Part shown: positions 6,411 to 48,098 of the stretch, piece after piece
How positions within the stretch are numbered: position 1 is the first letter of the stretch
Layout: each line of letters opens with the position of its first letter
Origin: Eledone cirrhosa
Taxonomy: Eukaryota
DNA: 64,000 bases
Direction: 5' to 3'
Assembly (NCBI GenBank): GCA_964016885.1
Contig: OZ024743.1
Span: forward strand, 47,368,001 to 47,432,000
Program-made: the position numbers and the translations under genes
Notes under the pieces: model-generated
The model's database searches: none
What the model was told of the DNA's origin: nothing
What the model saw: the letters and a program-made list of their open reading frames with translations, nothing else

Positions 6411-7089
6411 TTAGCCATCGGGCTTTAACACTGGCTTAAAGTGTTTGAAAGTTGCAAAGTTCTTGTGCATGCAGTTCGGGCAGTGTTCAGAGAGTTTGTT
6501 CAGTAGCGGGCCCTTGGCGAATAAAATTTCGTAGCTCTCTGAAATACAAAGGTCGCAGCCCTTGTGTCCTCCGTTGTAAGAGCGCGCTTCTGGAGTATTT
6601 TCCATTTAAGCGTGAAGGGGGTGGAGTTCCTTTTGAGGTCCCAAACGTAGGAGGCGAGTGTTGTCTGATTTGATTTATCCGGTCTTCTGAAGGAGTGGGT
6701 ATGGGCATACCAACGGGTCTTAAAGTTGTTGGAGGTCATGCCGATGTAAGTTTTTTTGCAATCCTCGGTGCCTGAGATGACATCGCATTTGTATACGATG
6801 TCATTTGTGAGGCATTTGTTTTCAAGTGGGCATGCTTCCTTATTTAGGCAATTACATAGAGCCCCAGTCCGGGGATTGGTTTCGGAGGTGGTTGGCTTAT
6901 TTAGTTTAGAATTGTGGTTGGCTATATTCCTAGCTAGGTTAAGTGTGGTGGAGTAAGACAGTCTTATAGTGTTCTTATTAAAGATGGTGTAGTACCTATG
7001 TTGTATGGGGAAGTGTAATTTCAGTAAAGTGAAGAAAATCCTAGCTATCGGAGTAGATACCTCTCTATTGAAGGGAGGGTTGTACCAGC

Positions 7090-7090
<1 letters not shown>
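6411..7090 (-). mobile_element. Penelope-like element 3' fragment: GIY-YIG endonuclease (frameshifted)
   Basis: WYNPPF...NKNTIRLSYS...CNC-x5-CPLENKC...IVY...YIGMT...FKTRW..H..SF...LASYVW, continuing in another frame with CDLCISE...LLNK.SE...C.H. Confidence 0.9.
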
Positions 7091-7120
<30 letters not shown>

Positions 7121-7126
7121 CTTATT

Positions 7127-7183
<57 letters not shown>

Positions 7184-7236
7184 TATATTATTCAAAATAT
7201 TAATAAATGGATACATTCACATACTCAAAATATATG

Positions 7237-7298
7237 TTTTATTATATATATTTCGGAGGTACTGTGTTGTTTTTTCAGTACGTCCTCATCAGATAAAA
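7237..7298 (-). ncRNA. Type I hammerhead ribozyme (PLE pLTR)
   Basis: Minus: TTTTAT-CTGATGA-GGAcGTACTG(loop)CAGTACcTCC-GAA-ATATATAT-A/ATAAAA; intact core, palindromic stem III. Confidence 0.85.
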
Positions 7299-7383
7299 TA
7301 CATAAATTGATGCATGACATACCTAACTGTGCTGATGGTTCTATTCCAGTCTTAAGAACTGATGATAATCCCTGATGTATAAC

Positions 7384-7481
7384 CATCAGGTAATTCAAAA
7401 TATAACGAAGGAATATAACAGATAAAAATCCATGGATTGTTATCTGTTATATTTCTTCGTTATATTTTGAATTACCTGATG
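7384..7481. repeat. 98-bp near-perfect palindrome centred on ATCCATGGAT
   Basis: CATCAGGTAATTCAAAATATAACGAAG... mirrored by ...CTTCGTTATATTTTGAATTACCTGATG, 2 mismatches, no spacer. Confidence 0.95.
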
Positions 7482-7530
7482 ATGTCACTGGATTCATATT
7501 GAACCCGGTCATTGAAATGATCATAGTATA
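7471..7530 (+). ncRNA. Probable hammerhead ribozyme (PLE-type, imperfect stems)
   Basis: TAC-CTGATGA-(imperfect stem II)-GAA-ATGATCAT-A/GTA; palindromic stem III. Confidence 0.55.
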
Positions 7531-8296
7531 ATAAACCTTTCAATGATTTACACCAGTACATGCCTCCTGTTATTTTGTAATAATTAACTCCGTACTCGCA
7601 CCACCAACTACACAAACGAAGACGGGTGAGTTGCATTACGTTGAGTGCTTTCCATAGTATTACATCGAGGTTCACCACACAGAATGACCAGTTCTATCCA
7701 GTGGTGAACCAACAAACCCAAATATATATATATAATAAGGGTTGACGGACCCAGCATATTTATCAATGCCAGTACCGGTTGTATCTCAGCGCACTCCATA
7801 GGCAATGTAAGATACATTCCCAGAGTATACACAAAGTTATTTGCTTCAACACAATACACATAAAACGGGTGCCTATAAGGCTCCCGGACTCGAGTTTCTG
7901 CGCACCAATGCAGCAGTAAGGTGCACTGCACCATCTGTCTGCATATATTATGCAACAATGCACAATCGGCTTATGCGGCTTCATCAGCGGGTATCGCCTA
8001 ATCAATAACCAATCGATCGACAGAATCCCAAGGCCAGTCTATGCCGGCCATGACTGTTTGTGACGACTGACACGGTAAAGCTATTAGCAACTGGCACCCG
8101 ATAGGAGTCTATCTCTCAACTAGCCACTGATTTACAAATTTTACGTGGGGACGGGAAGCTAAAAAGAATCATTCTTTTCGTTCCTGTCAGAAGTCTCAGC
8201 CAACGTGTCTCACACACACGTATATATGTAAAGATATATAAAAATGAAAATGCGAAGTTGAAGGTGTTTATTATTTGAGCCGTTATATAGTGAATA

Positions 8297-8345
8297 CTAG
8301 CAGAATGGCCCGGCGTTGTTCGGATTTGCTCTAGGGTTCTTATAT
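8297..8345 (-). mobile_element. Helitron 3' terminus
   Basis: Minus: ...CCGAACAACGCCGGGCCATTCTG-CTAG|T, subterminal GC-rich hairpin remnant plus CTAG end. Confidence 0.6.
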
Positions 8346-8416
8346 ATTTGATATATATTTATCCTTATCGAGCCTCGTGAAATAAATACGTATATATATA
8401 TATATACATATATATC

Positions 8417-8514
<98 letters not shown>

Positions 8515-8519
8515 TATAC

Positions 8520-8596
<77 letters not shown>

Positions 8597-8757
8597 CTAC
8601 AAGTGAGTGTGTGAGAGAGAGAGCATTAGAAAGAAGCAATGAGTGAGAGAGGTGAAATGGAGAAGGAGAATAGTAGAACCTAATGAGGACTGCTAAAACA
8701 GCAGCTGTTGTGAGACGGATTGTTCACTTTAGTATGAGGTCATTTTGGCCACCAATT

Positions 8758-8865
<108 letters not shown>

Positions 8866-9179
8866 GGTATGCATACGTGTTTCTAAGCGTTAAGAAGCCA
8901 CTTAGACCCTAAGATTCCAGCAGTAGCTAAAAACTTGTGTATAGACAGCTTCTTGATTTTGAAAGCATTAATGGTTGAGAAAAAAAAGGCGTAAAGAAGG
9001 CTATGGAGGTGGGGTGTATATTTTGACAGCTCACCGACTTCTCTCCCCATCACACCAATAATGATATCATTAAAGTTTCCGTAATAGCAGTTAGGTGTGT
9101 TGTGTGTCGGTCTTTCTGGCTGTGTGTCTGTCACCGTTTTAATGTGTAAATACTGCGTACACACGTCAATTTCTATATA

Positions 9180-9233
<54 letters not shown>

Positions 9234-9236
<3 letters not shown>

Positions 9237-11400
9237 GGACTGCCAACAACTTCCATACAACAGCGTTGTATGGGTTTCGAAAAGATCATAAGACGAAAAG
9301 TGACCCAGTCACAGGACCACCAACGCGTCTAGTCTGTGGAGCTAACAATGCTAGTAACTACAGACTTTCCTACTTCCTCTCCCTGATCGTACGCTCCATC
9401 ATTGAAATGTCCCCAGAAATATGTGTCAGCACGGAGGACCTCCTCAGCAGAATCAGCGAAAATAACCGATCTAGGGACCTAACAGACTGTATGGTAGTAT
9501 GGATGTTGTGTCCCTATACCCATCCATTGACGTGGATTTTGCTGTGGGGAAATGCGTAGACTTGATCAGTGAGAGCAATGTTGAATTCCGTGGGATTGAT
9601 ACCAGTGAGCTGGGACTGCTACTTAAACTTACTTATAGTAATGATTATCTAGATACGTATGACCTTAGCAACCTCTGCCTCACAAGGCCAGCAAGAGGCA
9701 GACCACCTACCATTACCTCAATGGCCAAGAAAACCCACACAGAAAGATGGAACGGGTGGACTAGAGCCATACGGACCCCTGAAAACCATGATGAACTAAA
9801 GAAAATGATTGCACATGCGGTGGGGGCCAGTATAAAACTAACCCTTAAGGAACATATGTTCAAATTTAATGGTAAAACATATGCCCAAGAGGAGGGAGTA
9901 GCCATTGGTGTTAACCATGCAGGTGACATAGCTAACCTATTCATGGTATGGTGGGACAATAAACTTAAAGAACAATTAGAAGACAGCAACCTCTTAACCC
10001 TGATAATTTACTCTCGCTACGTTGATGATATAAACATCGTAGTAAAAACACCCCCACTCCCCCACTAGAGAACAGTCAGGAATTATAGAAAAACACCATG
10101 GAAAGCATCCAGCAAATAGCTAACTCCATCCGCCAGAGTATTAGAGTTACTATAGACTACCAAAGCAAACACCCCCAACCATCGATTACCTGTACTAGAC
10201 TCAGAGCTCTGGTTAGAAACCATTAATAACAAAAAACAAATCCTCCATTCCCATTATGCCAAACCCATGACTTCCAAATATCTTATCCACCGAAACTCAG
10301 CTGTTTCGGATCACACCAAAATCAACATACTGATTGCGGATTTAGTACGGGTGATGAGAAACGTGTCCCGCATGTGCAACCCCAAAGAACTAGAGAGACA
10401 CATACAACACTTGATCCACCGTGTGCAGTTCTCTGGTTACAATCAGAGAGATAAAATCAGAGCATATAGAGGAGCCAGAACCAAATGGGAAAAAATGGTA
10501 AATAATGATACAAATGGCACCTGCCCCTTGTATAGGAGCAAATTTTGGAATAGAATAGAAAGAACTAGGAATAAGGTTAATAGAATAAACTCATGGTATG
10601 ATAGCAATAAATACCAAAGTGTAATGTTCATCAATACAACCCCTAGAGGTGAACTAGCTTACAAATTTAGAAGGGCCCTAGATAAACTTAAACTAAATAT
10701 TAAGATAGTAGAAACACCAGGTACCTCCATAAAAACACTTATTAGTATAATCTGTAAACTAAGCCCCCATATTAACTGCAAAACTAGAAACATAGTATAT
10801 AGCATAAGATGTACTGAAGGACAATGTAAAGATAAGAATATAGTGTACATAGGTGAGACAGCTCGTAGTATAGGAGAACGATTAAATGAACACTGGCGAG
10901 AGCTTCAAGATAGAAAAGAATCATCAGTACTCCACCAACATGTTAAAATAGAACATAAGGGTAAATTAGAGAACATAGAAATAAAAATAAAATCTACACA
11001 CAGAAAAGACGCAGGTTTAGACAAATCACAGAGGCAATAAACATAAATGAACTCCAACCAAAATTAAATAGAAACCATGAATGGAATAGCAACATCACAA
11101 CTTACAATTAACGACAAAATGAAAACACACACACATAGAACAAACAACCAACTAGTAACATGTAAATAAACAAATAAATAAACAAATAAAAACACACACA
11201 GACACCCGGATGTAACACATGCGCAAACTAAGCACACAACACACACAAAAACAAGATGGCGTAGGACAGAACAAAGGAGAGGCACAAAACAAAGAAAAGA
11301 ATCCCCAGTCACTGAAGAGGTCACAGAATGTGTGACGAAAGAACTTTGACAATATATGAACAACCGTCCGGTTGTGGAACCAACCAACCAACCGGAAATT
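9234..11400 (+). mobile_element. Penelope-like element, 5'-truncated, frameshifted RT plus C-terminal GIY-YIG
   Basis: PPTRLV..., DVVSLYPSID, FKFNGKTYAQEEGVAIG, YSRYVDD, KPMTSK, NIVYSIRC...YIGETARSIGERLNEH; begins in (TA)n; hammerhead in the 3' region. Confidence 0.92.
11308..11350 (+). ncRNA. Type I hammerhead ribozyme in PLE 3' region
   Basis: GTCA-CTGAAGA-g-GTCACA(gaatg)TGTGAC-GAA-AGaaCT-T/TGAC. Confidence 0.8.
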
Positions 11401-24169: not shown

Positions 24170-26280
24170 GTTCCCCACGTTTCTGTTCCCCACTCTAGGA
24201 TGATAGAGGCCCTCAAACTTGCTAAAGTCCCAGACATTATTGTCAGAGCCATAAAGAGGCTGTCTTCTTCTTGGCCTACTATCCTAAGGTTAAAGACAGG
24301 GAGGGAGGGCTCTATTCTCACTGATAAAATAAAATATTGCAGGGGTATATTTCAGGGCGACAGTCTGTCTGTGATATTATTCATCTTGTCATTAAACCCC
24401 TTGTCCTTTCTGCTCAAGAAATGTGAGGGATACATCATTGGCTCACAGGAGGACAGAAATACGAACCTAACCCATAATTTCTTTGTGGACGATCTGAAAC
24501 TCTATGCCAAGAACATGGATGAGATGAAGAAAAATCTTGACCTGGTTACAACGTTCTCAAAGGATATAGGAATGGAGTTTGACCAAGATAAATGCTCATA
24601 CATGACTGTAAAGCGGGGAAAAACAACAACCCAATCTAGCAACATTGTCATCAATGGCCTAACTGTTTCACCGATATCTGATGAGGACTGCTACAGATAC
24701 CTGGGGATAGATGAGAACATATCCTATAATGGTATCTGTAATAAAGAACGTGTAACCAAGGAATACTACACCCGATTAAGAAAGATCTGGTCATCGGAAC
24801 TCTCTGCGCAAAACAAAACAGTGGCTCACAATGTGTTTGCTATGCCTGTCCTAACACCAACGTTTGGAATACTCAATTGGACGATAGACGAAATCCGAGC
24901 AGTTGATGTTGGAACTCGAAAAATACTAAACAACACCGGAAACTTCCACATCGACAGTGACATAGACCGCCTTTACTTGAAACGTAAGCAGGGGGCCAGA
25001 GGCCTAACATCAGTCCAGACAACATTTGAATGTCGCATCATATCTCTCCGACAACATCTACGAACCTGGAAGCGTAGGAGCCCGTTTCTCGAGCAAGTCT
25101 ATCTGCATGAAATAGATAAGATCATGAGAGTTGGGAACGAACTCCTCGAGAGATATTCCCTGTGTCATAATCAAAAACTCACACCCAGGGATGTCGCTCA
25201 GCAGTATCGCAGTGAATCCATGGATGAAAAACTGCATGTTTATCAGCAAAAAATCATGCATGGATATGTTGCCAGGAAGCTCAAGAGTGAGAGTAATATA
25301 GATAAGGAAAGTAGTCTATCTTGGACCAACAACCGCTATATTGGCTCCAACTTTGAAGGATACGCTTTTGCAATCCAGGAACAGGAGATTAACACGAAAT
25401 ACCTGATTCACAAAAGAGATAGGGATGCAGGCAAAACACCTAGATGTGATAACAAGTGCAGACTCTGAAGAACTAACATCGAGGATATCACCCATGTCAT
25501 CAGTAGCTGTCCAAAGATGTCATCGCGGTACTATCTACCTATGAGGCATGATGTAGTGGCCAAAACACTGTACAATGCAGTTCGTGAAAAAGATAACCCC
25601 GATAATAAACACATTAAAAGTTACAGCAATGTGGAAGACATCCATGTACATAATATGAAAGAGTACTGGTGGAATGTTCCAGTAAAAACCCCAATAAAAT
25701 GCAGGCATAACAGACCAGATATTATGATATGAGACAGGTAGAAGAAAGCATGCACAGTAGTGGAAATTAGCTGCCCAGCAGATGCCAATATAATATCAAA
25801 GATTAGTGAAAAGGAGAATATTTATGCAGAACTGATAAGAAATCTGCAGATACTCCACCCTGAATATACCTTCAGATTTATGCCTGTGATTATTGGGGCA
25901 CTGGGATATGTTAGTAACTGCCTCAATACAAATCTTGAGAAGCTAGGCTTCACAGGAACAGAAAGAACACAACTAGTTAGGAAATTACAAGTACAATCCA
26001 TTAATGGAACAGTAAAAATATGTAAAACATTCCAAACATTTTGCATCTAATAACTGCATATACACATGTACAGATGCAAAGCATATACACATGCACACAT
26101 ACAACTCAAAACATACACATCCACACATACAATAACATCCATATCTACACATGCATGCATACATACATATTTACCTAGTTGATGTTGTGTAAATTCCAAT
26201 GAGAGTGTCTTGTGTCTATGTTAGAAACCGACTCTCTCTCTGTTGGTAAAACTTTGTGAAATTATAAAACCAGAAGAACA
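24169..26280 (+). mobile_element. R4/Dong-like (RLE) LINE, 5'-truncated: RT, CCHC finger, restriction-like endonuclease; three in-frame stops
   Basis: GIFQGDSLS, FFVDDLK, YRYLGI, RKQGARGL, CRL*..EDITHVISSC, RHD, RPDI, EISCP; ORF 24200-26050 interrupted. Confidence 0.93.
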
Positions 26281-29410: not shown

Positions 29411-32400
29411 ATGGCTGACTTACGAGTTGGAAGTGTGAATGTGCGTGGCCTAGGGATGCCCTGGAAACAGGACCAACTTTTAAACGACCTTAGGTCACAC
29501 GGTATAGATGTAATAGCTATCACCGAGTCCAGGATCCACAACAGACAGCAACTAACCCCCATCTTCAATGCCGGGAGGTGGAGGGGGCGACTGTCATGTT
29601 TCGGAAAAACCTGGATCTCGAAGTACAGCAAGTACACTTGGACCCGGAGGGTAGACTGGTAGTCCTAGACGTGAACAGACTGGTGGCCGTTTATGCCCCG
29701 ACCGGGCAATCGCAATCGCGGCCAGACTTCTTTAACCTTCTAGAGTCTTTTCTGGGAACGTCTCACTCCTTGCTTTTAGTGAGGGACTGGAATGGTATCC
29801 TAGATGCACGATGGGACTATGTGGGAGCATGTCCCAGTAGAGCGGGGTGCAACAGCCTCAAAAATCTAATCGGCCAATTCCAACTGGCCGATAGATATTG
29901 ACTAGATTTCCCGACTGCACCACAGTGGACGTGGGCAAACCTCAGCGGGACATCTAGATCGTATTTAGAGAGACGGACAAGAAGATGTTAAGCTGTCCAC
30001 AAATGCGCATGGTTGCCTATTCAGATCACAAACTAGTCGACTGCATAGTCAACCGTGATAGAATACATAGACAAGGACCCGGATACTGGAAGCTGAACGT
30101 GCCGTTGCTGGCACGAAAAGCCTAAGTAGATTAGTTAAGCAGAGTTGACGGGAGCCATTGTCAACAATAGATGGTGGTACTCTCTCAAGAGAGGAATTAG
30201 AGTAGAATCGATAGGGTCTAGCAGAGAATTAGCTTTAGAGAAAAACAAATCAGAAACAGAACTAATAGCCAAGGTAGAAGAGTGCCACCGCAGTTAGAGT
30301 GCTAGCATTGAGAACGGCACTGGACCAGTTCTTCGACGAAACACGAAGGCTGCATGGTCAGAAGTAAATCACGTGCTCTAGGAAACGAGGGAGCAAAAGC
30401 TGTTAGCTGGGCCCGAGTGGCGGAAGCGAAAAGTGGCAACAAGTCCACGATTCGGTCTTTGAAAGACCAAAACGGACGCGTGCTACTTGACCCCAAGCAG
30501 ATGTGCGCGGCCTTTCAGCGGCACTTTGCGCGACTGTTTAAGCAGAACGACGGTGCCCGAACGGGGCAATGGACTTTGGTTCATACTTCGACGGCCTGCC
30601 GCGTCTCTCGAGCATGGATGCCGAGTTCTGCGAAAGACCGATCACAGCCACTGAGATACGGGACGCTCTGGGCCGCTGCGGGAAACGCAAATCACCCGGT
30701 CTAGATGGTCTACCCTATGAGTTTTACATAGGCATGCCGGACTTGTTCTCTGGCGTCCTCGAAGCCGTCTACTGCAATTGGCAGCAGAACGGGACAATTC
30801 CCAGTTCTGCAGGCAAGGGCGTATCAGGAAAGACGAGAACAAGGGGGACGAAATAAACAATTTCAGGCCCATAACTCTGCTCAACACAGAGTTAAAGATT
30901 TTGGCCAAGGTACTAGCAACGAGGCTGGCGCTTCTTGTCGAAAACCTGGTAGGGAAAGCGCAAACGTGTGCAATCCCGACCAGGTCCATACACGACAACC
31001 TCCACCTCATGGGATACATCATAGAGAGGGTGGGGTGTAAACCCGGCTTCGGTGGGGCTCTGATCAATTTAGATCAGTCTAAGGCATTCGATAGGGTCGA
31101 CCATCGATACTTGGAAGCGGTTCTCAAGGCGGCCGGTTTCGGTCCCGTTTTCAGAGGCTGGATCAAGGCGATGCACACCAGCATCTGCTCGAAGGTCAAG
31201 GTGAACGGCTACCTATCGGAGCCGTTCGCAATCACGCGTTCTATTCGACAGGGATGCCCTCTCTCCTCCATTATGTACGTATTGACTCTAGAGCCACTAC
31301 TGCGGAAGTTGGAGCTTTTGCAGGGCATCCATTTAGAACTGGGACTGCGAAAAGCAGTGTCAGCTTCTGACGACGACGTGACGGTAATGGTGTCGAAACC
31401 CTTGAAAATCGAGGTAATCGGGAACTTACTACAGGAATACGAAAGGTTCACTGGAGCAAAACTGAACCCGGACTAGTCTGTCGGTTTGCAACTCGGAATG
31501 TGGAGAGGCAAACCGATGCCGTCCGACAACGTCGTCGGACGCTGGACGGAAGGACTGGTGAAATTGCTCGGGGTCTGGTTCGGTCCAGACCTCCTGGTGG
31601 AGAAAAACTGGAACGAGGTCATGGCCAAGGTATTTGCACTCACCCAGAAGTGGGCAGAGTACAAACTATCCTTGAAAAGTCGAGCGGAGGTGGCGAACAC
31701 TTTCATAGCGTCCGTCATCTACTACCGCTTGATTGTCGTGCCTTGTCCCCGTGAATACCTCACCAAGATGGAACGCATGCTCTTCCAGTTCCTGTGGAAG
31801 AAGCGAGCTCCACTGGTGATGAGATCCGTCTGCTGTCAACACTCTTCCAACGGAGGGCTGGGCATGCCGTGGCTAATTATGCGCAAACATGCGCTGAGGC
31901 TACGGAATCTCCAGGTATTCCTCACCGACCAACCGGTGAGGGAACCGTTTGATAGACAGGCCTTCCCACAACTTGTCTCGCTGACGGAGCTGCAGTCCTG
32001 GGTCAAGCGAAGACCAAAGAAGATGGGCGCCTGGCACATTGAATGCGCCCAGGCGCTCACAATCCTCTATCAAGTGGGTACAGCAATCAGTGGAAACTCC
32101 ACTTTGACATTCTATAGAGGGTTAGTACTTTACAAGTGCGACGACGTGCTCGGGGTGACTCTAGGCGTCGAAGACGACGAGCTCACCAGTCTGTTCGGTA
32201 GGACTTTCCGCCCGGGACCTATGGACAACTTCCAAAGGTCCCTGGCAGTGCTACGGAGGAGCTCTACCCGATCGAGATAAGATCTACAGGCACGGACGCG
32301 CCGGCAGGGATCCTTCCAAGAGGACGTGTCCAAGATGCGAGCAAAACATTGAAACTGTCTTGCACGCAATTATACACTGCCCGGGAGTAAGCGACCTGTG

Positions 32401-38828: not shown

Positions 38829-39124
38829 CCCACAAGATTCCAACTGGTGTGAACCGGTGCCAACTGGTATAACAAAATCAAACACCCACAAGATTCCAAC
38901 TGGTGTGAACCGGTACCAACTGGTATAACAAAATCAAACACCTACAAGATTCCAACTGGTGTGAACCGGTACCAACTGGTATAACAAAATCAAACACCCA
39001 CAAGATTCCAACTGGTGTGAACCGGTACCAACTGGTATAACAAAATCAAACACCCACAAGATTCCAACTGGTGTGAACCGGTACCAACTGGTATAACAAA
39101 ATCAAACACCCACAAGATTCCAAC
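38829..39124. repeat. 56-bp minisatellite, about 5.3 copies
   Basis: Unit CCCACAAGATTCCAACTGGTGTGAACCGGTACCAACTGGTATAACAAAATCAAACA starting at 38829, 38885, 38941, 38997, 39053, 39109. Confidence 0.95.
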
Positions 39125-39362: not shown

Positions 39363-39793
39363 CTGGTATAACAAAATCAAACAAACTCGAAAGCTAGAAT
39401 GAGAAAAGATCTTTACTAAATATTAATATTGTCTTAAACTTACATTAAACAGTTAATATTATAATTAAAATCAGGTCTTGTGAATATATTTATAGGGAAT
39501 CACAATATTCTTATTTAGTATGCAACAAAATTCTTCTTTGAATATCAGTTGTGTCCAACGTTGATATAAGCAAAGTTGTGATAGTTAATATGGGTTCAAA
39601 TCAGGCCTCGTCGTTTTTTTTTTGGGGGGGGGGGGGGGTCGTTTTGTTTTGATTTTTTTTTATAACGTTTGATAATGTTTAATGTTTTTAATACAAACCA
39701 AACATCTTAAATTAACATTTGTTTGTTACATTACTTTTTGTATTCGATCACTCTTCTCCTGCATCTCTTTTTCTCGTTATCAGTTTTATCCAC

Positions 39794-41110
39794 TCATGCT
39801 TCTGTTAGTAATTTCCATATCATCAGGCATATTCCTTCGTTTGGATTGTTCTCGCAAATAGTTTTGATCTGTTGTAGTTTTGCAGAAAGTTTCTCTCTCT
39901 CGTTATCTGTTTCGTCGTCTTCATCTTTGTTCAAATCCGTTTGGGATTCCTTGTCTAATAATGTTACCTTCCTAAACTCAGGCTCTTCTTCAATGACTGT
40001 TGATATCACATCATGATCAGTCTCACTGCTTATTCTACAAGCGTCACCCTGACCGGAATTCTCCCTTTCATACTTTTCAAAATTATTTTTCCTGATGAAT
40101 TTGGTACAATTATTATTCAAGCCGCGTAGTCGACACAAATCATAAGTTTGGCCTTTATAGTTTGCGTGAAAAAATGCTTTAAACCATTTTCCAAAGAAGA
40201 AATTCCCTTTAAAGGTTCCTTTTATCAAATTGTCAACTGGAATATCTTTATCGACAGCAAAATTTTTAAAAGCAGCTTGAAGACATTTGAAATTCTGACG
40301 TTTATCTGTGTCGGTAACAGGGTTCAATTTTATATCTTCAATTGTAATTGAACCAGGAAATAATATCCCCATACCAACACAGAAGTCGACACCCGTTCCC
40401 AGTTCGCCTATGCTAGACAATTTCGGGGAGATAGCTCTACGGAACCAAATAATTAAATCTTCTTTGCTTACGTTTTGAACTCGGAATGTGTTATTGATGG
40501 CCAAATTCTTTGTTTTTACAAACATTTTAGACGGTTGAGACATGGCGTTTTTATTCACAGATTCATTATCACGGGGGCTTCCTGGTTTCAAGAATTCATC
40601 TTTGTTTTTGTTGACTGGTGATTGTGTATTTATTTCAGGATTATCTTTTGTATCCTTTGTATCTTCATTGCTTTCTTCGCCTTGAGATCGTGAAAACCTT
40701 TTCTTGAACTTTTTCTTTTTACATGAGGCTCTAAGTTTGTTTATATCATAGGGTTGGCCTTGGTAATTCTCCAGAAAGAACGATCGGAACCATTGCCCAA
40801 ACTGATAACAACTTTTGAAATTTCCTTTTACAATATCTTCAACGGGTATCTCTTTTTCAACACCATTTTTCTCAAAGATTGCTTGAAGGTAACTAAAATT
40901 ATGGCGTCGATCATTTTCCGTAAGTTTGTCAATCTTTATATTCCGTAAATCGACAGAAGCAGGGAATAGTATCTCCATTCCTAGACAAAGATCAGTACCA
41001 GACCATAGATCTTCGATTGCGTTGAATTTCGGGAAAATTGTTCGACGGAACCAGATAGTCAAATCTTCTTTGCTGACATGTTCAACTTTAAAACAATTAT
41101 TTGCACTCAT
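39794..41110 (-). CDS. Intronless EB1/MAPRE (RP/EB family)-like protein with two tandem CH domains, 438 aa
   Basis: Both repeats align by eye to the EB1 CH domain (S+.D+..W ... +E.L.SG...C..M.+LFP.S+ ... NF..LQA.F...V.K.IPV..++KG.F....F..WF+.FF..NY.G..YD); C-terminal ERE...KL..I..IC..N resembles EBH; open 1.3-kb ORF in unique DNA. Confidence 0.92.
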   Translation of the reverse strand: MSANNCFKVEHVSKEDLTIWFRRTIFPKFNAIEDLWSGTDLCLGMEILFPASVDLRNIKIDKLTENDRRHNFSYLQAIFEKNGVEKEIPVEDIVKGNFKSCYQFGQWFRSFFLENYQGQPYDINKLRASCKKKKFKKRFSRSQGEESNEDTKDTKDNPEINTQSPVNKNKDEFLKPGSPRDNESVNKNAMSQPSKMFVKTKNLAINNTFRVQNVSKEDLIIWFRRAISPKLSSIGELGTGVDFCVGMGILFPGSITIEDIKLNPVTDTDKRQNFKCLQAAFKNFAVDKDIPVDNLIKGTFKGNFFFGKWFKAFFHANYKGQTYDLCRLRGLNNNCTKFIRKNNFEKYERENSGQGDACRISSETDHDVISTVIEEEPEFRKVTLLDKESQTDLNKDEDDETDNEREKLSAKLQQIKTICENNPNEGICLMIWKLLTEA

Positions 41111-41664
41111 ATCGGTGTATTTCGAAGAAGTAAGAAGTTGGGTTGGAATCCAGCTATGTTATTTCAAGAGTATGGATGTGTATAATGAATATATATTCGG
41201 CAAATAAGCAGGGTTTTGTGTCATAAATAACATAAAGCTTAAAGAACAAATAGTATTCCTCACTGAAAGCAAAATAACTCAGAGAAAATAAGTTTACTTG
41301 ACAACTGTTGGTAACAGAACGCAACAGACTGATAACCGTTATGAAAACATATCAAAAACGTTAGCCGTGAGAAACGCAACTAAAAGACGCTTGTTGATTC
41401 AAATAGTTTATTTTTTCTGTTGGTTCGTACACTGGCATTCACTGTTAATATCGAATTCATTGTGAATAGATTCATTGTTATTAATTTCTTACATAAAAAT
41501 ATAACTAGATTTATTATCGACGTAAATGAAACGAAACAAATGTCTAAAACCGCGAATTGAAACCGGATCGCGGTTCCACGGAAGATTAACTTACACTTTA
41601 TGGTTATTTTTAGAGGTAAGATCATGGTGTCTTTTCGTTTCCAGGGTCCTCTGAAACTAAAACT

Positions 41665-46939: not shown

Positions 46940-47980
46940 TTGAGGTCAGCTCTCCCCACCTTTGCCCAGGTCTTTCTTGTTCTATCTCTACCGCCACTTC
47001 CTTCCACTAGCATTTCCTGGCACTTCTTCACCCAACGATAATAGTCCATGTGCACTACATGCCCAAGCCAACGCACTCTTCTTTCCTACATACCAGCTCG
47101 GATTCCTCTTAAACCCAGCTTTTTCTTCAAGCTCTGCCACTCTCCCATACTTACATTGCATATCCAATAAAGCACGGTTGCCTCATTTCTATCCAGTCTA
47201 CGCACGTCCCCTGCAGTCACAGCCCATGTTTCGCTACCATGTAGCACCACATGTCCTCTGCAATCACAGCCCATGTTTCACTACCATGCAGCATCACACT
47301 TCACACACAGGCATCATACAGTTGTTCTTTTGTACGTAAGGAAAAACCTTTTGTAGTCAACAGTGGGAGTAGCTCTGAACTTTTTTCATCCTTTCCTTAT
47401 TTTAACTATTATGTTCTCAGAGCACCCCACTACATTGCTAATTACATAACCTAAATAGCAGAGACTATCAACCACTTCTATGGGTCCTTCCTGTGACTAG
47501 AATAGGCTTACATCACTGGTTATCTTCCCCTCGGTTAATCCTGTGCATCCTCTATAAACAAAGTCTTCCCTTCCTGTTATCCCACTACATATTTTGTGTA
47601 CCCAAGATTTATATAGTGTACATTGTATAGAGTTTATGTCTACTCCATTTCTACATATTGAGCAAGGTCATCTCCCTAAAGGAATCAGGAGAGAAGATTT
47701 TAAATTTGATTTCCATAGTCGGAACTTATTTTCTAGATCTTTAATGGATTCGGCTATAAGGACCAGATCATATGCATAGAGAGGTTCCCATGAGTAACCG
47801 GTCTTAAACTCCTCTGTTATAGCCTGGATAATTATAATGAAGAGTAGTGCACTAAGAACCGAACCTTGATGAACTCCTACTTGTACCTTGAATTCCTCAC
47901 TAAACTCATTTCCTACTCTCACTTTGCTGACAGCTCCTCTGTACATGACTTGCACTGCTCTCACCAACCATTCTTCTACA
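46940..47980 (-). mobile_element. RTE LINE RT fragment (decayed)
   Basis: VGVHQGSVLS.LLF...LYAYDLVL; LHGSETWAVT. Confidence 0.85.
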
Positions 47981-48013
<33 letters not shown>

Positions 48014-48098
48014 TGACTCTTTTCCTACTACCCACTCTACTATCCTAAGTATTGAGTACTCTGGTGCGTTCTGGTTCACCTGGTATCTTACCACACCC

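Follow-up and report, generated by a model that had tools for sequence, protein, structure and literature searches.

An intact intron-less EB1 derivative with two calponin-homology domains in octopods

Within the 64,000-nucleotide stretch of Eledone cirrhosa DNA analysed here—hereafter the window—lies an open reading frame, P0001, that encodes a derivative of EB1 with two calponin-homology (CH) domains on one chain. The frame occupies 39794..41110 on the minus strand (read from 41110 to 39794) and comprises 438 codons followed by TGA, with no internal stops; the plus strand carries stops throughout the same interval. M1 is the first methionine downstream of an in-frame stop 16 codons upstream, and full-length orthologues run from this first methionine to the C-terminus. 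The original prediction of an intact 438-residue frame with two EB-type CH domains is confirmed, on the minus strand; its description as a single exon applies to the coding sequence alone. Two ATTAAA sequences (39678..39692, minus strand; 102 and 111 nt past the stop) are candidate poly(A) signals by sequence match in AT-rich DNA, and an A-rich patch about 130 nt past the stop is the sole possible trace of a poly(A) remnant or target-site duplication, the event being old. A 56-bp tandem repeat (5.3 copies, 98% matches) lies at window positions 38829-39124, about 670 bp downstream of the stop.

Both CH domains are of the EB1 type. CH1 spans aa 4-128 (40727..41101, minus strand) and CH2 aa 206-330 (40121..40495, minus strand), with borders taken from a custom EB-CH profile; Pfam CH (PF00307) matches the protein twice (E 7.6e-11), and the best solved relatives are the CH domains of EB1 and EB3 (E 1e-29 to 1e-25), followed by Bim1 and Mal3. 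The heads are 51% identical to one another, and 36% (CH1) and 38% (CH2) identical to the canonical EB of the same genome; the doubling is old, because the heads have diverged to this 51% and differ at 11 of 20 four-fold sites. A structural model of aa 201-438 (74 sequences), of the kind proposed with the original prediction, gave a CH2 block with pLDDT 90-98 and low values for aa 331-393. The modelled CH2 overlays the CH domains of EB1, EB3, Bim1 and Mal3 at TMt 0.76-0.96—other CH folds match only at E>0.1—and so the fold, too, is that of an EB-type CH. A full-length AlphaFold model from five close orthologues had a mean pLDDT of 40 and was discarded, and the ESM Atlas returned nothing beyond leads under 0.9, to ordinary EB clusters.

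The tandem-CH actin-binding domains of alpha-actinin, fimbrin and spectraplakins also place two CHs on each chain; however, these belong to another CH subtype (fold matches to P0001 only at E>0.1, 9-22% identity), and the CHs of P0001, which stand 77 residues apart, are probably not packed as one unit. The linker between them (aa 129-205; 40496..40726, minus strand) has low model confidence and opens with the basic patch KKKKFKKR (aa 131-138; window 40697-40720), which is present as first described and kept in four octopod orthologues. The SP motifs that were also pointed out are present in P0001; however, PGSPR is unique to it and TQSP occurs in only two of six relatives.

The chain closes with an EBH remnant (aa 404-438; 39797..39901, minus strand), a helix-loop-helix recognised by structure search, model and alignment, in which FYF has become KLS and which lacks both coiled coil and EEY—P0001 ends in LLTEA, the canonical parent in EEY. 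Its core residues K411, L412, I415 and C419 correspond to EB1 K220, L221, I224 and C228. The model places two helices at aa 394-421 and 426-437 (block pLDDT 78-89), a confidence that leans on canonical EBH sequences because those sat in the model alignment. Pfam finds no PF03271 match in P0001, the EBH-like end being below detection, and this end alone scores 1.8 bits against EB1; in its support, shuffling gives z = 3.9 for the comparison with the parent tail and z = 6.2 for that with P0082, and the KLxxIxxxC register is kept.

In published work on EB1, the substitutions F216A, Y217A, F218A, K220A, I224A and E225A are reported to abolish cargo binding, with only I224A producing a monomer, and the helical bundle is given as 1,540 of the 3,340 A2 of dimer surface, or nearly half (PMC2171753). 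All nine full-length family members have lost FYF and kept K220, L221, I224 and C228, with variable replacements for FYF (KLS, TVT, DNQ). The predicted loss of the SxIP cargo residues (FYF) and of the EEY tail extends to every orthologue. The predicted E225-to-K change is there in P0001 (K416) but is peculiar to this genome and was rejected as a family feature: at this position four of nine family members have E (P0002, P0009, P0010 and P0003), one has K and four have R. Loss of the coiled coil was likewise borne out, as the heptad a-positions are polar in P0001; the parent, like most of the single-CH paralogues checked, has hydrophobic residues at the upstream heptad positions. The acidic stretch said to replace it is present in P0001 but absent from Argonauta and P0013.

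Upstream of the bundle lies the LC8/DYNLL-like motif LDKESQTD (aa 385-392; 39935..39958, minus strand; D-4 K-3 E-2 S-1 Q0 T+1 D+2), in a region of low pLDDT. It matches five of the six defined positions of the published consensus [D/S]-K-x-[T/V/I]-Q-[T/V]-[D/E] (PMC3078936); the exception is position -1, where a branched residue is preferred and P0001 has S. The motif was part of the original prediction and proves to be a clade-wide feature: of 26 clade proteins, 14 have xQ[TV][DE] somewhere after their final CH, as do 7 of 135 others, against a mean of 1.3 and a maximum of 7 in 1,000 shuffles, counts that involve related rows and a pattern chosen after viewing them (P0128, one of the seven, is a clade member by sequence). 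Within the P0001 family, four of six full-length members keep it, and it is broken in Argonauta and P0010. Many peptides with an LC8 anchor are reported not to bind LC8 (PMC6607443), and the literature searched gave no report of LC8 binding to an EB. Known LC8/DYNLL clients that are dimerised beside a coiled coil or bundle resemble P0001 in carrying D-K-x-x-Q-T-D in a likely disordered stretch, and differ from it at its S at -1 and in that its motif is lost in two of six relatives. The distance from motif to K220 is 59-148 residues in single-CH paralogues, with the coiled coil in between, versus 21-27 in the P0001 family; the simplest history would be deletion of the coiled coil, leaving an LC8-type site next to a bare bundle. 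A further motif, ENxGQGDA (aa 350-357; 40040..40063, minus strand), recurs in every octopod orthologue and also in P0013, at 36% identity. GQGDA resembles the GCGDC that follows the CH in long coiled-coil paralogues (L004, P0006, P0021).

Orthologues with two CH domains, which the original prediction had proposed to seek across molluscs, were found at full length in four octopod species: Octopus bimaculoides (XP_052822784), O. vulgaris (CAI9719419) / O. sinensis (XP_036356937), Argonauta hians (GAB1599771), together with one Logan member. They are annotated as uncharacterised or as RP/EB-like only. Conservation follows the domains: identity to P0001 is 88-90% in CH1, 91-94% in CH2 and 52-77% in the EBH remnant, against 45-63% in the linker between the heads and 32-53% in the one after CH2. 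Every indel among orthologues is in frame. A profile search added P0013, a 488-residue protein (cluster of 4) that is 36% identical, has the same layout, and carries ENxGQGDA, an ASQTD motif and the KLxxIxxxC end. P0004 is a close relative of P0013 in which similarity is lost midway through CH2. It is their common layout and motifs that make this pair candidate orthologues of the octopod gene (tail z only 2.3; linker z 0.1 for P0013 and 3.5 for P0004), and their distance suggests that they come from a deeper coleoid branch; the wider clade includes a named cuttlefish protein. The Logan cluster sequences are 1.4-3.9 kb long, approximately the coding sequence with short flanks, and may be transcripts or short genomic contigs; they were not counted as expression.

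The only intron-containing EB found in this genome is the canonical EB1/MAPRE gene (L015-L019; G000:C2:88009357-88039605, plus strand), which has seven coding exons with GT-AG borders and encodes 268 residues with Q102, FYF and EEY. Three of its introns fall inside the CH, and all three are absent from both CHs of P0001, in agreement with the retro-type origin originally proposed. The genome holds at least nine intron-less EB frames including P0001, the eight others being of 321 residues or more. Seven of these, L003-L009 (contigs C1, C4, C5, C6, C9 and C28), are single-CH paralogues with varied tails—L007 has a near-normal EBH, L004 and L008 long coiled coils—and most have a residue other than Q at 102. 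The distance between L004 and L008 is 18 kb, and copies made later may have arisen by DNA duplication.

A 172-row CH tree places 32 rows, including both heads, on one branch (SH-like 99, FastTree, few columns), and the matching 22 rows of a 30-row tree group with SH-aLRT 95. P0001 therefore goes back to an ancient EB copy without introns, which founded a clade of paralogues; a retrocopy is the simplest source, although P0001 need not itself be a direct one. How the octopod heads relate to each other fits several topologies, none of which was rejected: CH1 and CH2 as sisters (p-AU 0.36), CH1 with the CH1 of P0013 (0.20), CH2 with the CH2 of P0013 (0.15), or all eight together (0.16). In the first 30 columns octopod CH1 and CH2 are alike at 19-22 of 30 positions, versus 41-45 of 99 in the remainder, an unusual likeness that hints at internal duplication or conversion there. 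Two partial copies of the gene lie elsewhere. One is a 476-bp copy of codons 180-337, 98.7% identical (L022:6568-7043, = L002; G000:C1 near 149.61 Mb), inside a Helitron-like element and beside a PIF1 helicase (E 8e-58); it carries four amino-acid-changing and two silent differences, as expected of a decaying copy. The other, an 84-bp copy of the 5' end (window 41035-41118), is 95% identical and has stops in frame (L023:4504-4587, = L011; G000:C2 near 138.66 Mb).

A phmmer search against 1.84 billion cluster representatives gave 1,442 matches at E<=0.001, and among the best 150 of these 1,442 two complete CHs were found in P0003, P0119 and P0134, with one complete and one cut CH in P0004. Three apparent multi-CH proteins (P0022, P0076 and P0126) were rejected because each has a single CH that its gene model divides or repeats in part. 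P0103 (Aethina tumida XP_049825085) has two partial EB CHs only and was not counted; these are interleaved with EBH-like pieces and may be a mis-joined tandem pair.

A second double-CH lineage, comprising P0134 (Argonauta), P0175 (O. vulgaris), P0176, P0119 and L010, also has EB1 and EB3 as its best solved relatives. A common clade for both double-CH lineages was rejected (AU test, p-AU 0.0002): the second arose independently in the same animals. Its proteins end 1-3 residues past the last CH profile match and have no dimer module. The member in this genome (L010 / L024; G000:C15:4517966-4519226, plus strand) has an N-terminal extension and no tail, and its CH2 is frameshifted at a 13-bp tandem duplication in this assembly; the orthologues (Argonauta, O. 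vulgaris and two others) are intact. In the literature searched, mostly non-subscription, neither a two-CH EB nor any of these accessions is described, and cephalopod EB paralogues do not appear; the two-CH EB derivative is apparently undescribed so far.

One substitution that the original prediction missed falls in both heads. The position of EB1 Q102, likely a switch between tip and lattice binding (judging from alignment and Mal3 Q89 mutants), is lysine in CH1 (K99; 40814..40816, minus strand) and, by alignment, again in CH2 (K301; 40208..40210, minus strand). Lysine also stands here in 11 of 11 alignable CHs of the P0001 family, a count in which P0004 CH2 is gapped and the near-duplicates P0009 and P0014-16 are excluded. 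More widely, 21 of 32 clade rows and 6 of 6 rows of the second double-CH lineage, where the alignment around this position is less certain, have K or R at 102, as against Q in 115 of 134 other rows. We take Mal3 Q89 to be the counterpart of EB1 Q102, which fits the computed offsets.

Mal3 Q89A is reported to bind more tightly and to the entire microtubule and Mal3 Q89R to lose end tracking (PMC3368265, PMC6459531), and an analogous Q-to-R mutant of human EB2 to lie along spindle microtubules (PMC4821873; numbered Q125 in that paper, which is not reconciled with EB1 Q102). The glutamine is described as conserved in all eukaryotic EB1s compared in a study of Plasmodium EB1 (PMC10199041). These laboratory mutants of Mal3 and EB2 change the same site as P0001, a conserved glutamine that contacts H3 of beta-tubulin; in contrast, the change in P0001 is natural, is to lysine rather than arginine or alanine, affects both heads and sits in a remodelled surface instead of an otherwise normal one. 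Q102K in both heads points to lattice binding. Teleost Dnmt3b duplicates (the P0121 branch: P0132, P0122, P0145, P0148, P0136 and P0059) carry an EB-type CH as well, and position 102 is K or R in five of the seven rows of this branch.

The remainder of the tubulin-facing surface is partly kept and partly remodelled. Most clade rows retain S16, a basic residue at 17, K62, N74 and K89; position 89 is K or R in 29 of 32 and position 76 in 25 of 32. Both heads of P0001 change H18 to E, H69 to N/T, I90 to E/D, K100 to N/T and E106 to Q/F, and single heads change K59/K60 to E/D (CH2) and K76 to S (CH1). I90, K100, F105 and E106 are reported to lie within 5 A of tubulin (PMC6398475), and Mal3 Y56A and K63D to weaken microtubule binding (PMC3368265). 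As the surface has changed beyond Q102, microtubule binding by P0001 could be weak or altered.

P0001 is a real, conserved gene and an EB derivative that departs from canonical EBs in several respects. With EB1/MAPRE proteins (human EB1, EB3, Mal3, Bim1) it shares the CH fold, the helix-loop-helix with its I224 core, and MAPRE descent; unlike them, it has two CHs, K102 and an LC8-like motif, and is without coiled coil, FYF, EEY, PF03271 and coding introns. From these features we consider it somewhat more probable than the converse that P0001 is a lattice binder, cross-linking and stabilising microtubules as a four-headed dimer with no cargo site. Each CH would still dock on tubulin, having kept K89 and the basic residue 17, and the lysine at the Q102 position would remove tip preference, like Q89R and Q89A in Mal3. 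The tether of 77 residues, flexible and partly basic, would let the two heads add avidity and reach two microtubules. The shortened bundle would still dimerise, helped by LC8 binding 21-27 residues upstream in the former place of the coiled coil, and no SxIP or CAP-Gly partners would be recruited. Purely by analogy, the likeliest setting would be one of the stable microtubule arrays of male germ cells, for instance the manchette-like sheath around the nucleus of octopus spermatids, and we put a germ-line setting at about even odds.

The arrangement of heads is where the lattice-binding dimer parts from the original prediction, in which a single chain was a pseudo-dimer: a monomer whose two CHs replace dimerisation and which binds one microtubule, at tip or lattice, competing partnerless with canonical EB. 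The coiled-coil heptads, and with them half of the EB1-type dimer surface, are indeed gone, EB CHs are reported to need two copies for good binding (PMC10359004), and the second double-CH lineage, which has no dimer module, suggests that two heads alone are a viable design. However, the bundle core (K220, L221, I224, C228 and the helix B hydrophobics) is kept as far out as P0013, at 36% identity, and the linkers have changed more than the EBH region has—a partnerless amphipathic hairpin would be unlikely to persist. I224, the buried residue whose mutation monomerises EB1, is unchanged in all nine family members checked, which makes the single-chain proposal doubtful; because this dimer-core residue is kept in all relatives, a four-CH dimer appears at least as likely as a pseudo-dimer, and the monomeric reading as a whole is unlikely. 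The conserved islands in the otherwise fast-changing tail (ENxGQGDA and the EBH remnant) could also be read as an adaptor surface, with the heads on microtubules, the rewired tail (GQGDA, LC8 site, KLS) binding a new partner such as nuclear envelope, nuclear pores or dynein, or pairing with another EB paralogue, and bundling being secondary. Drosophila Mst27D, which is reported to bind Nup358 through a diverged C-terminus (PMC10359004), offers a precedent, and there are at least eight paralogues, some with a bundle end; yet no analysis indicates a partner, and the surface that replaces FYF is variable (KLS, TVT, DNQ), leaving the adaptor reading a rather slim prospect.

The CHs might instead bind something other than the ordinary lattice, for example a partner that is not tubulin, or a modified or specialised tubulin array such as that of axonemes or the seam. 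Throughout the clade the interface departs from that of canonical EBs at many positions, and EB-type CHs have been co-opted elsewhere, as in the teleost Dnmt3b duplicates, often with K or R at 102; however, K89, K62, N74, S16 and the basic residue 17 are mostly kept, and the new basic residues (71, 102) adjoin the old surface, so that we regard such a ligand as improbable. A non-functional retro-pseudogene or assembly artefact is brought to mind by the retro-element remains around P0001 and by the lack of any second recognisable gene in the window. Against this, the frame is intact in four species and two further clusters, conservation is domain-shaped, and the decaying 476-bp stray copy, with its four amino-acid-changing and two silent differences, presents a contrast; this explanation is very improbable.

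For the lattice-binding dimer, several known systems are informative. Octopus spermatids are reported to have manchette-like perinuclear microtubules (PMC3004946). Mst27D is described as an EB1 relative of retroposed origin, specific to spermatids, and is reported to bind microtubules over their whole length, to bundle them and, through its diverged C-terminus, to tie them to nuclear pores via Nup358 (PMC10359004). Other fly EB paralogues are reported as testis- or ovary-biased (PMC11419005). Mst27D, CG15306, CG2955 and CG32371 resemble P0001 in their diverged EB1-type CH, retroposition and lost tail similarity (PMC10359004, PMC11419005). In contrast to P0001, Mst27D has one CH, a predicted coiled coil, proven testis specificity and a partner in Nup358 (PMC10359004), and the cephalopod clade and the fly testis EBs are probably separate expansions (Mst27D is absent from our alignments). 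Plasmodium EB1 is described as a natural lattice-binding EB in male gametogenesis, with a linker that adds binding; unlike P0001, it keeps the glutamine and has one CH (PMC10199041). A broader proposal, which we advance only tentatively and think rather improbable, is that coleoids possess an intron-less EB toolkit in which tip trackers became lattice scaffolds convergently—at least two CH doublings, each with a basic residue at Q102—and that P0001, with LC8 in place of its lost coiled coil, is an LC8-gated, four-headed bundler that builds the manchette-like spermatid sheath.

In the usual view an EB is a dimer with one CH per chain that tracks tips and has an invariant glutamine where it senses the GTP cap. 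With a substitution of the lattice-shifting kind in each head, a natural two-CH EB amounts to an experiment made by nature on two questions: what encodes the preference for tips, and whether the CH pair of an EB acts at a single site or at two. The repeated double-CH origin within one animal group and the parallel with the retroposed fly testis EBs suggest that stable microtubule arrays of the germ line are repeatedly built from recycled EB1, and if LC8 replaces the coiled coil, it would represent a new way to switch EB valency.

Around P0001, the window is rich in microsatellites and contains fragments of reverse transcriptase and GIY-YIG. Five of the eight window frames picked from the long-ORF list match RVT_1 or GIY-YIG, and 148 further open frames (the longest 148 of 151 non-overlapping) gave one RVT_1 match and no other family; family matches recognised no host gene other than P0001 in the window, a search by which small exons would be missed. 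Penelope-like (RT + GIY-YIG) and other non-LTR fragments lie at window positions 6500-11040, 24200-25468, 31009-32280 and 47671-48024.
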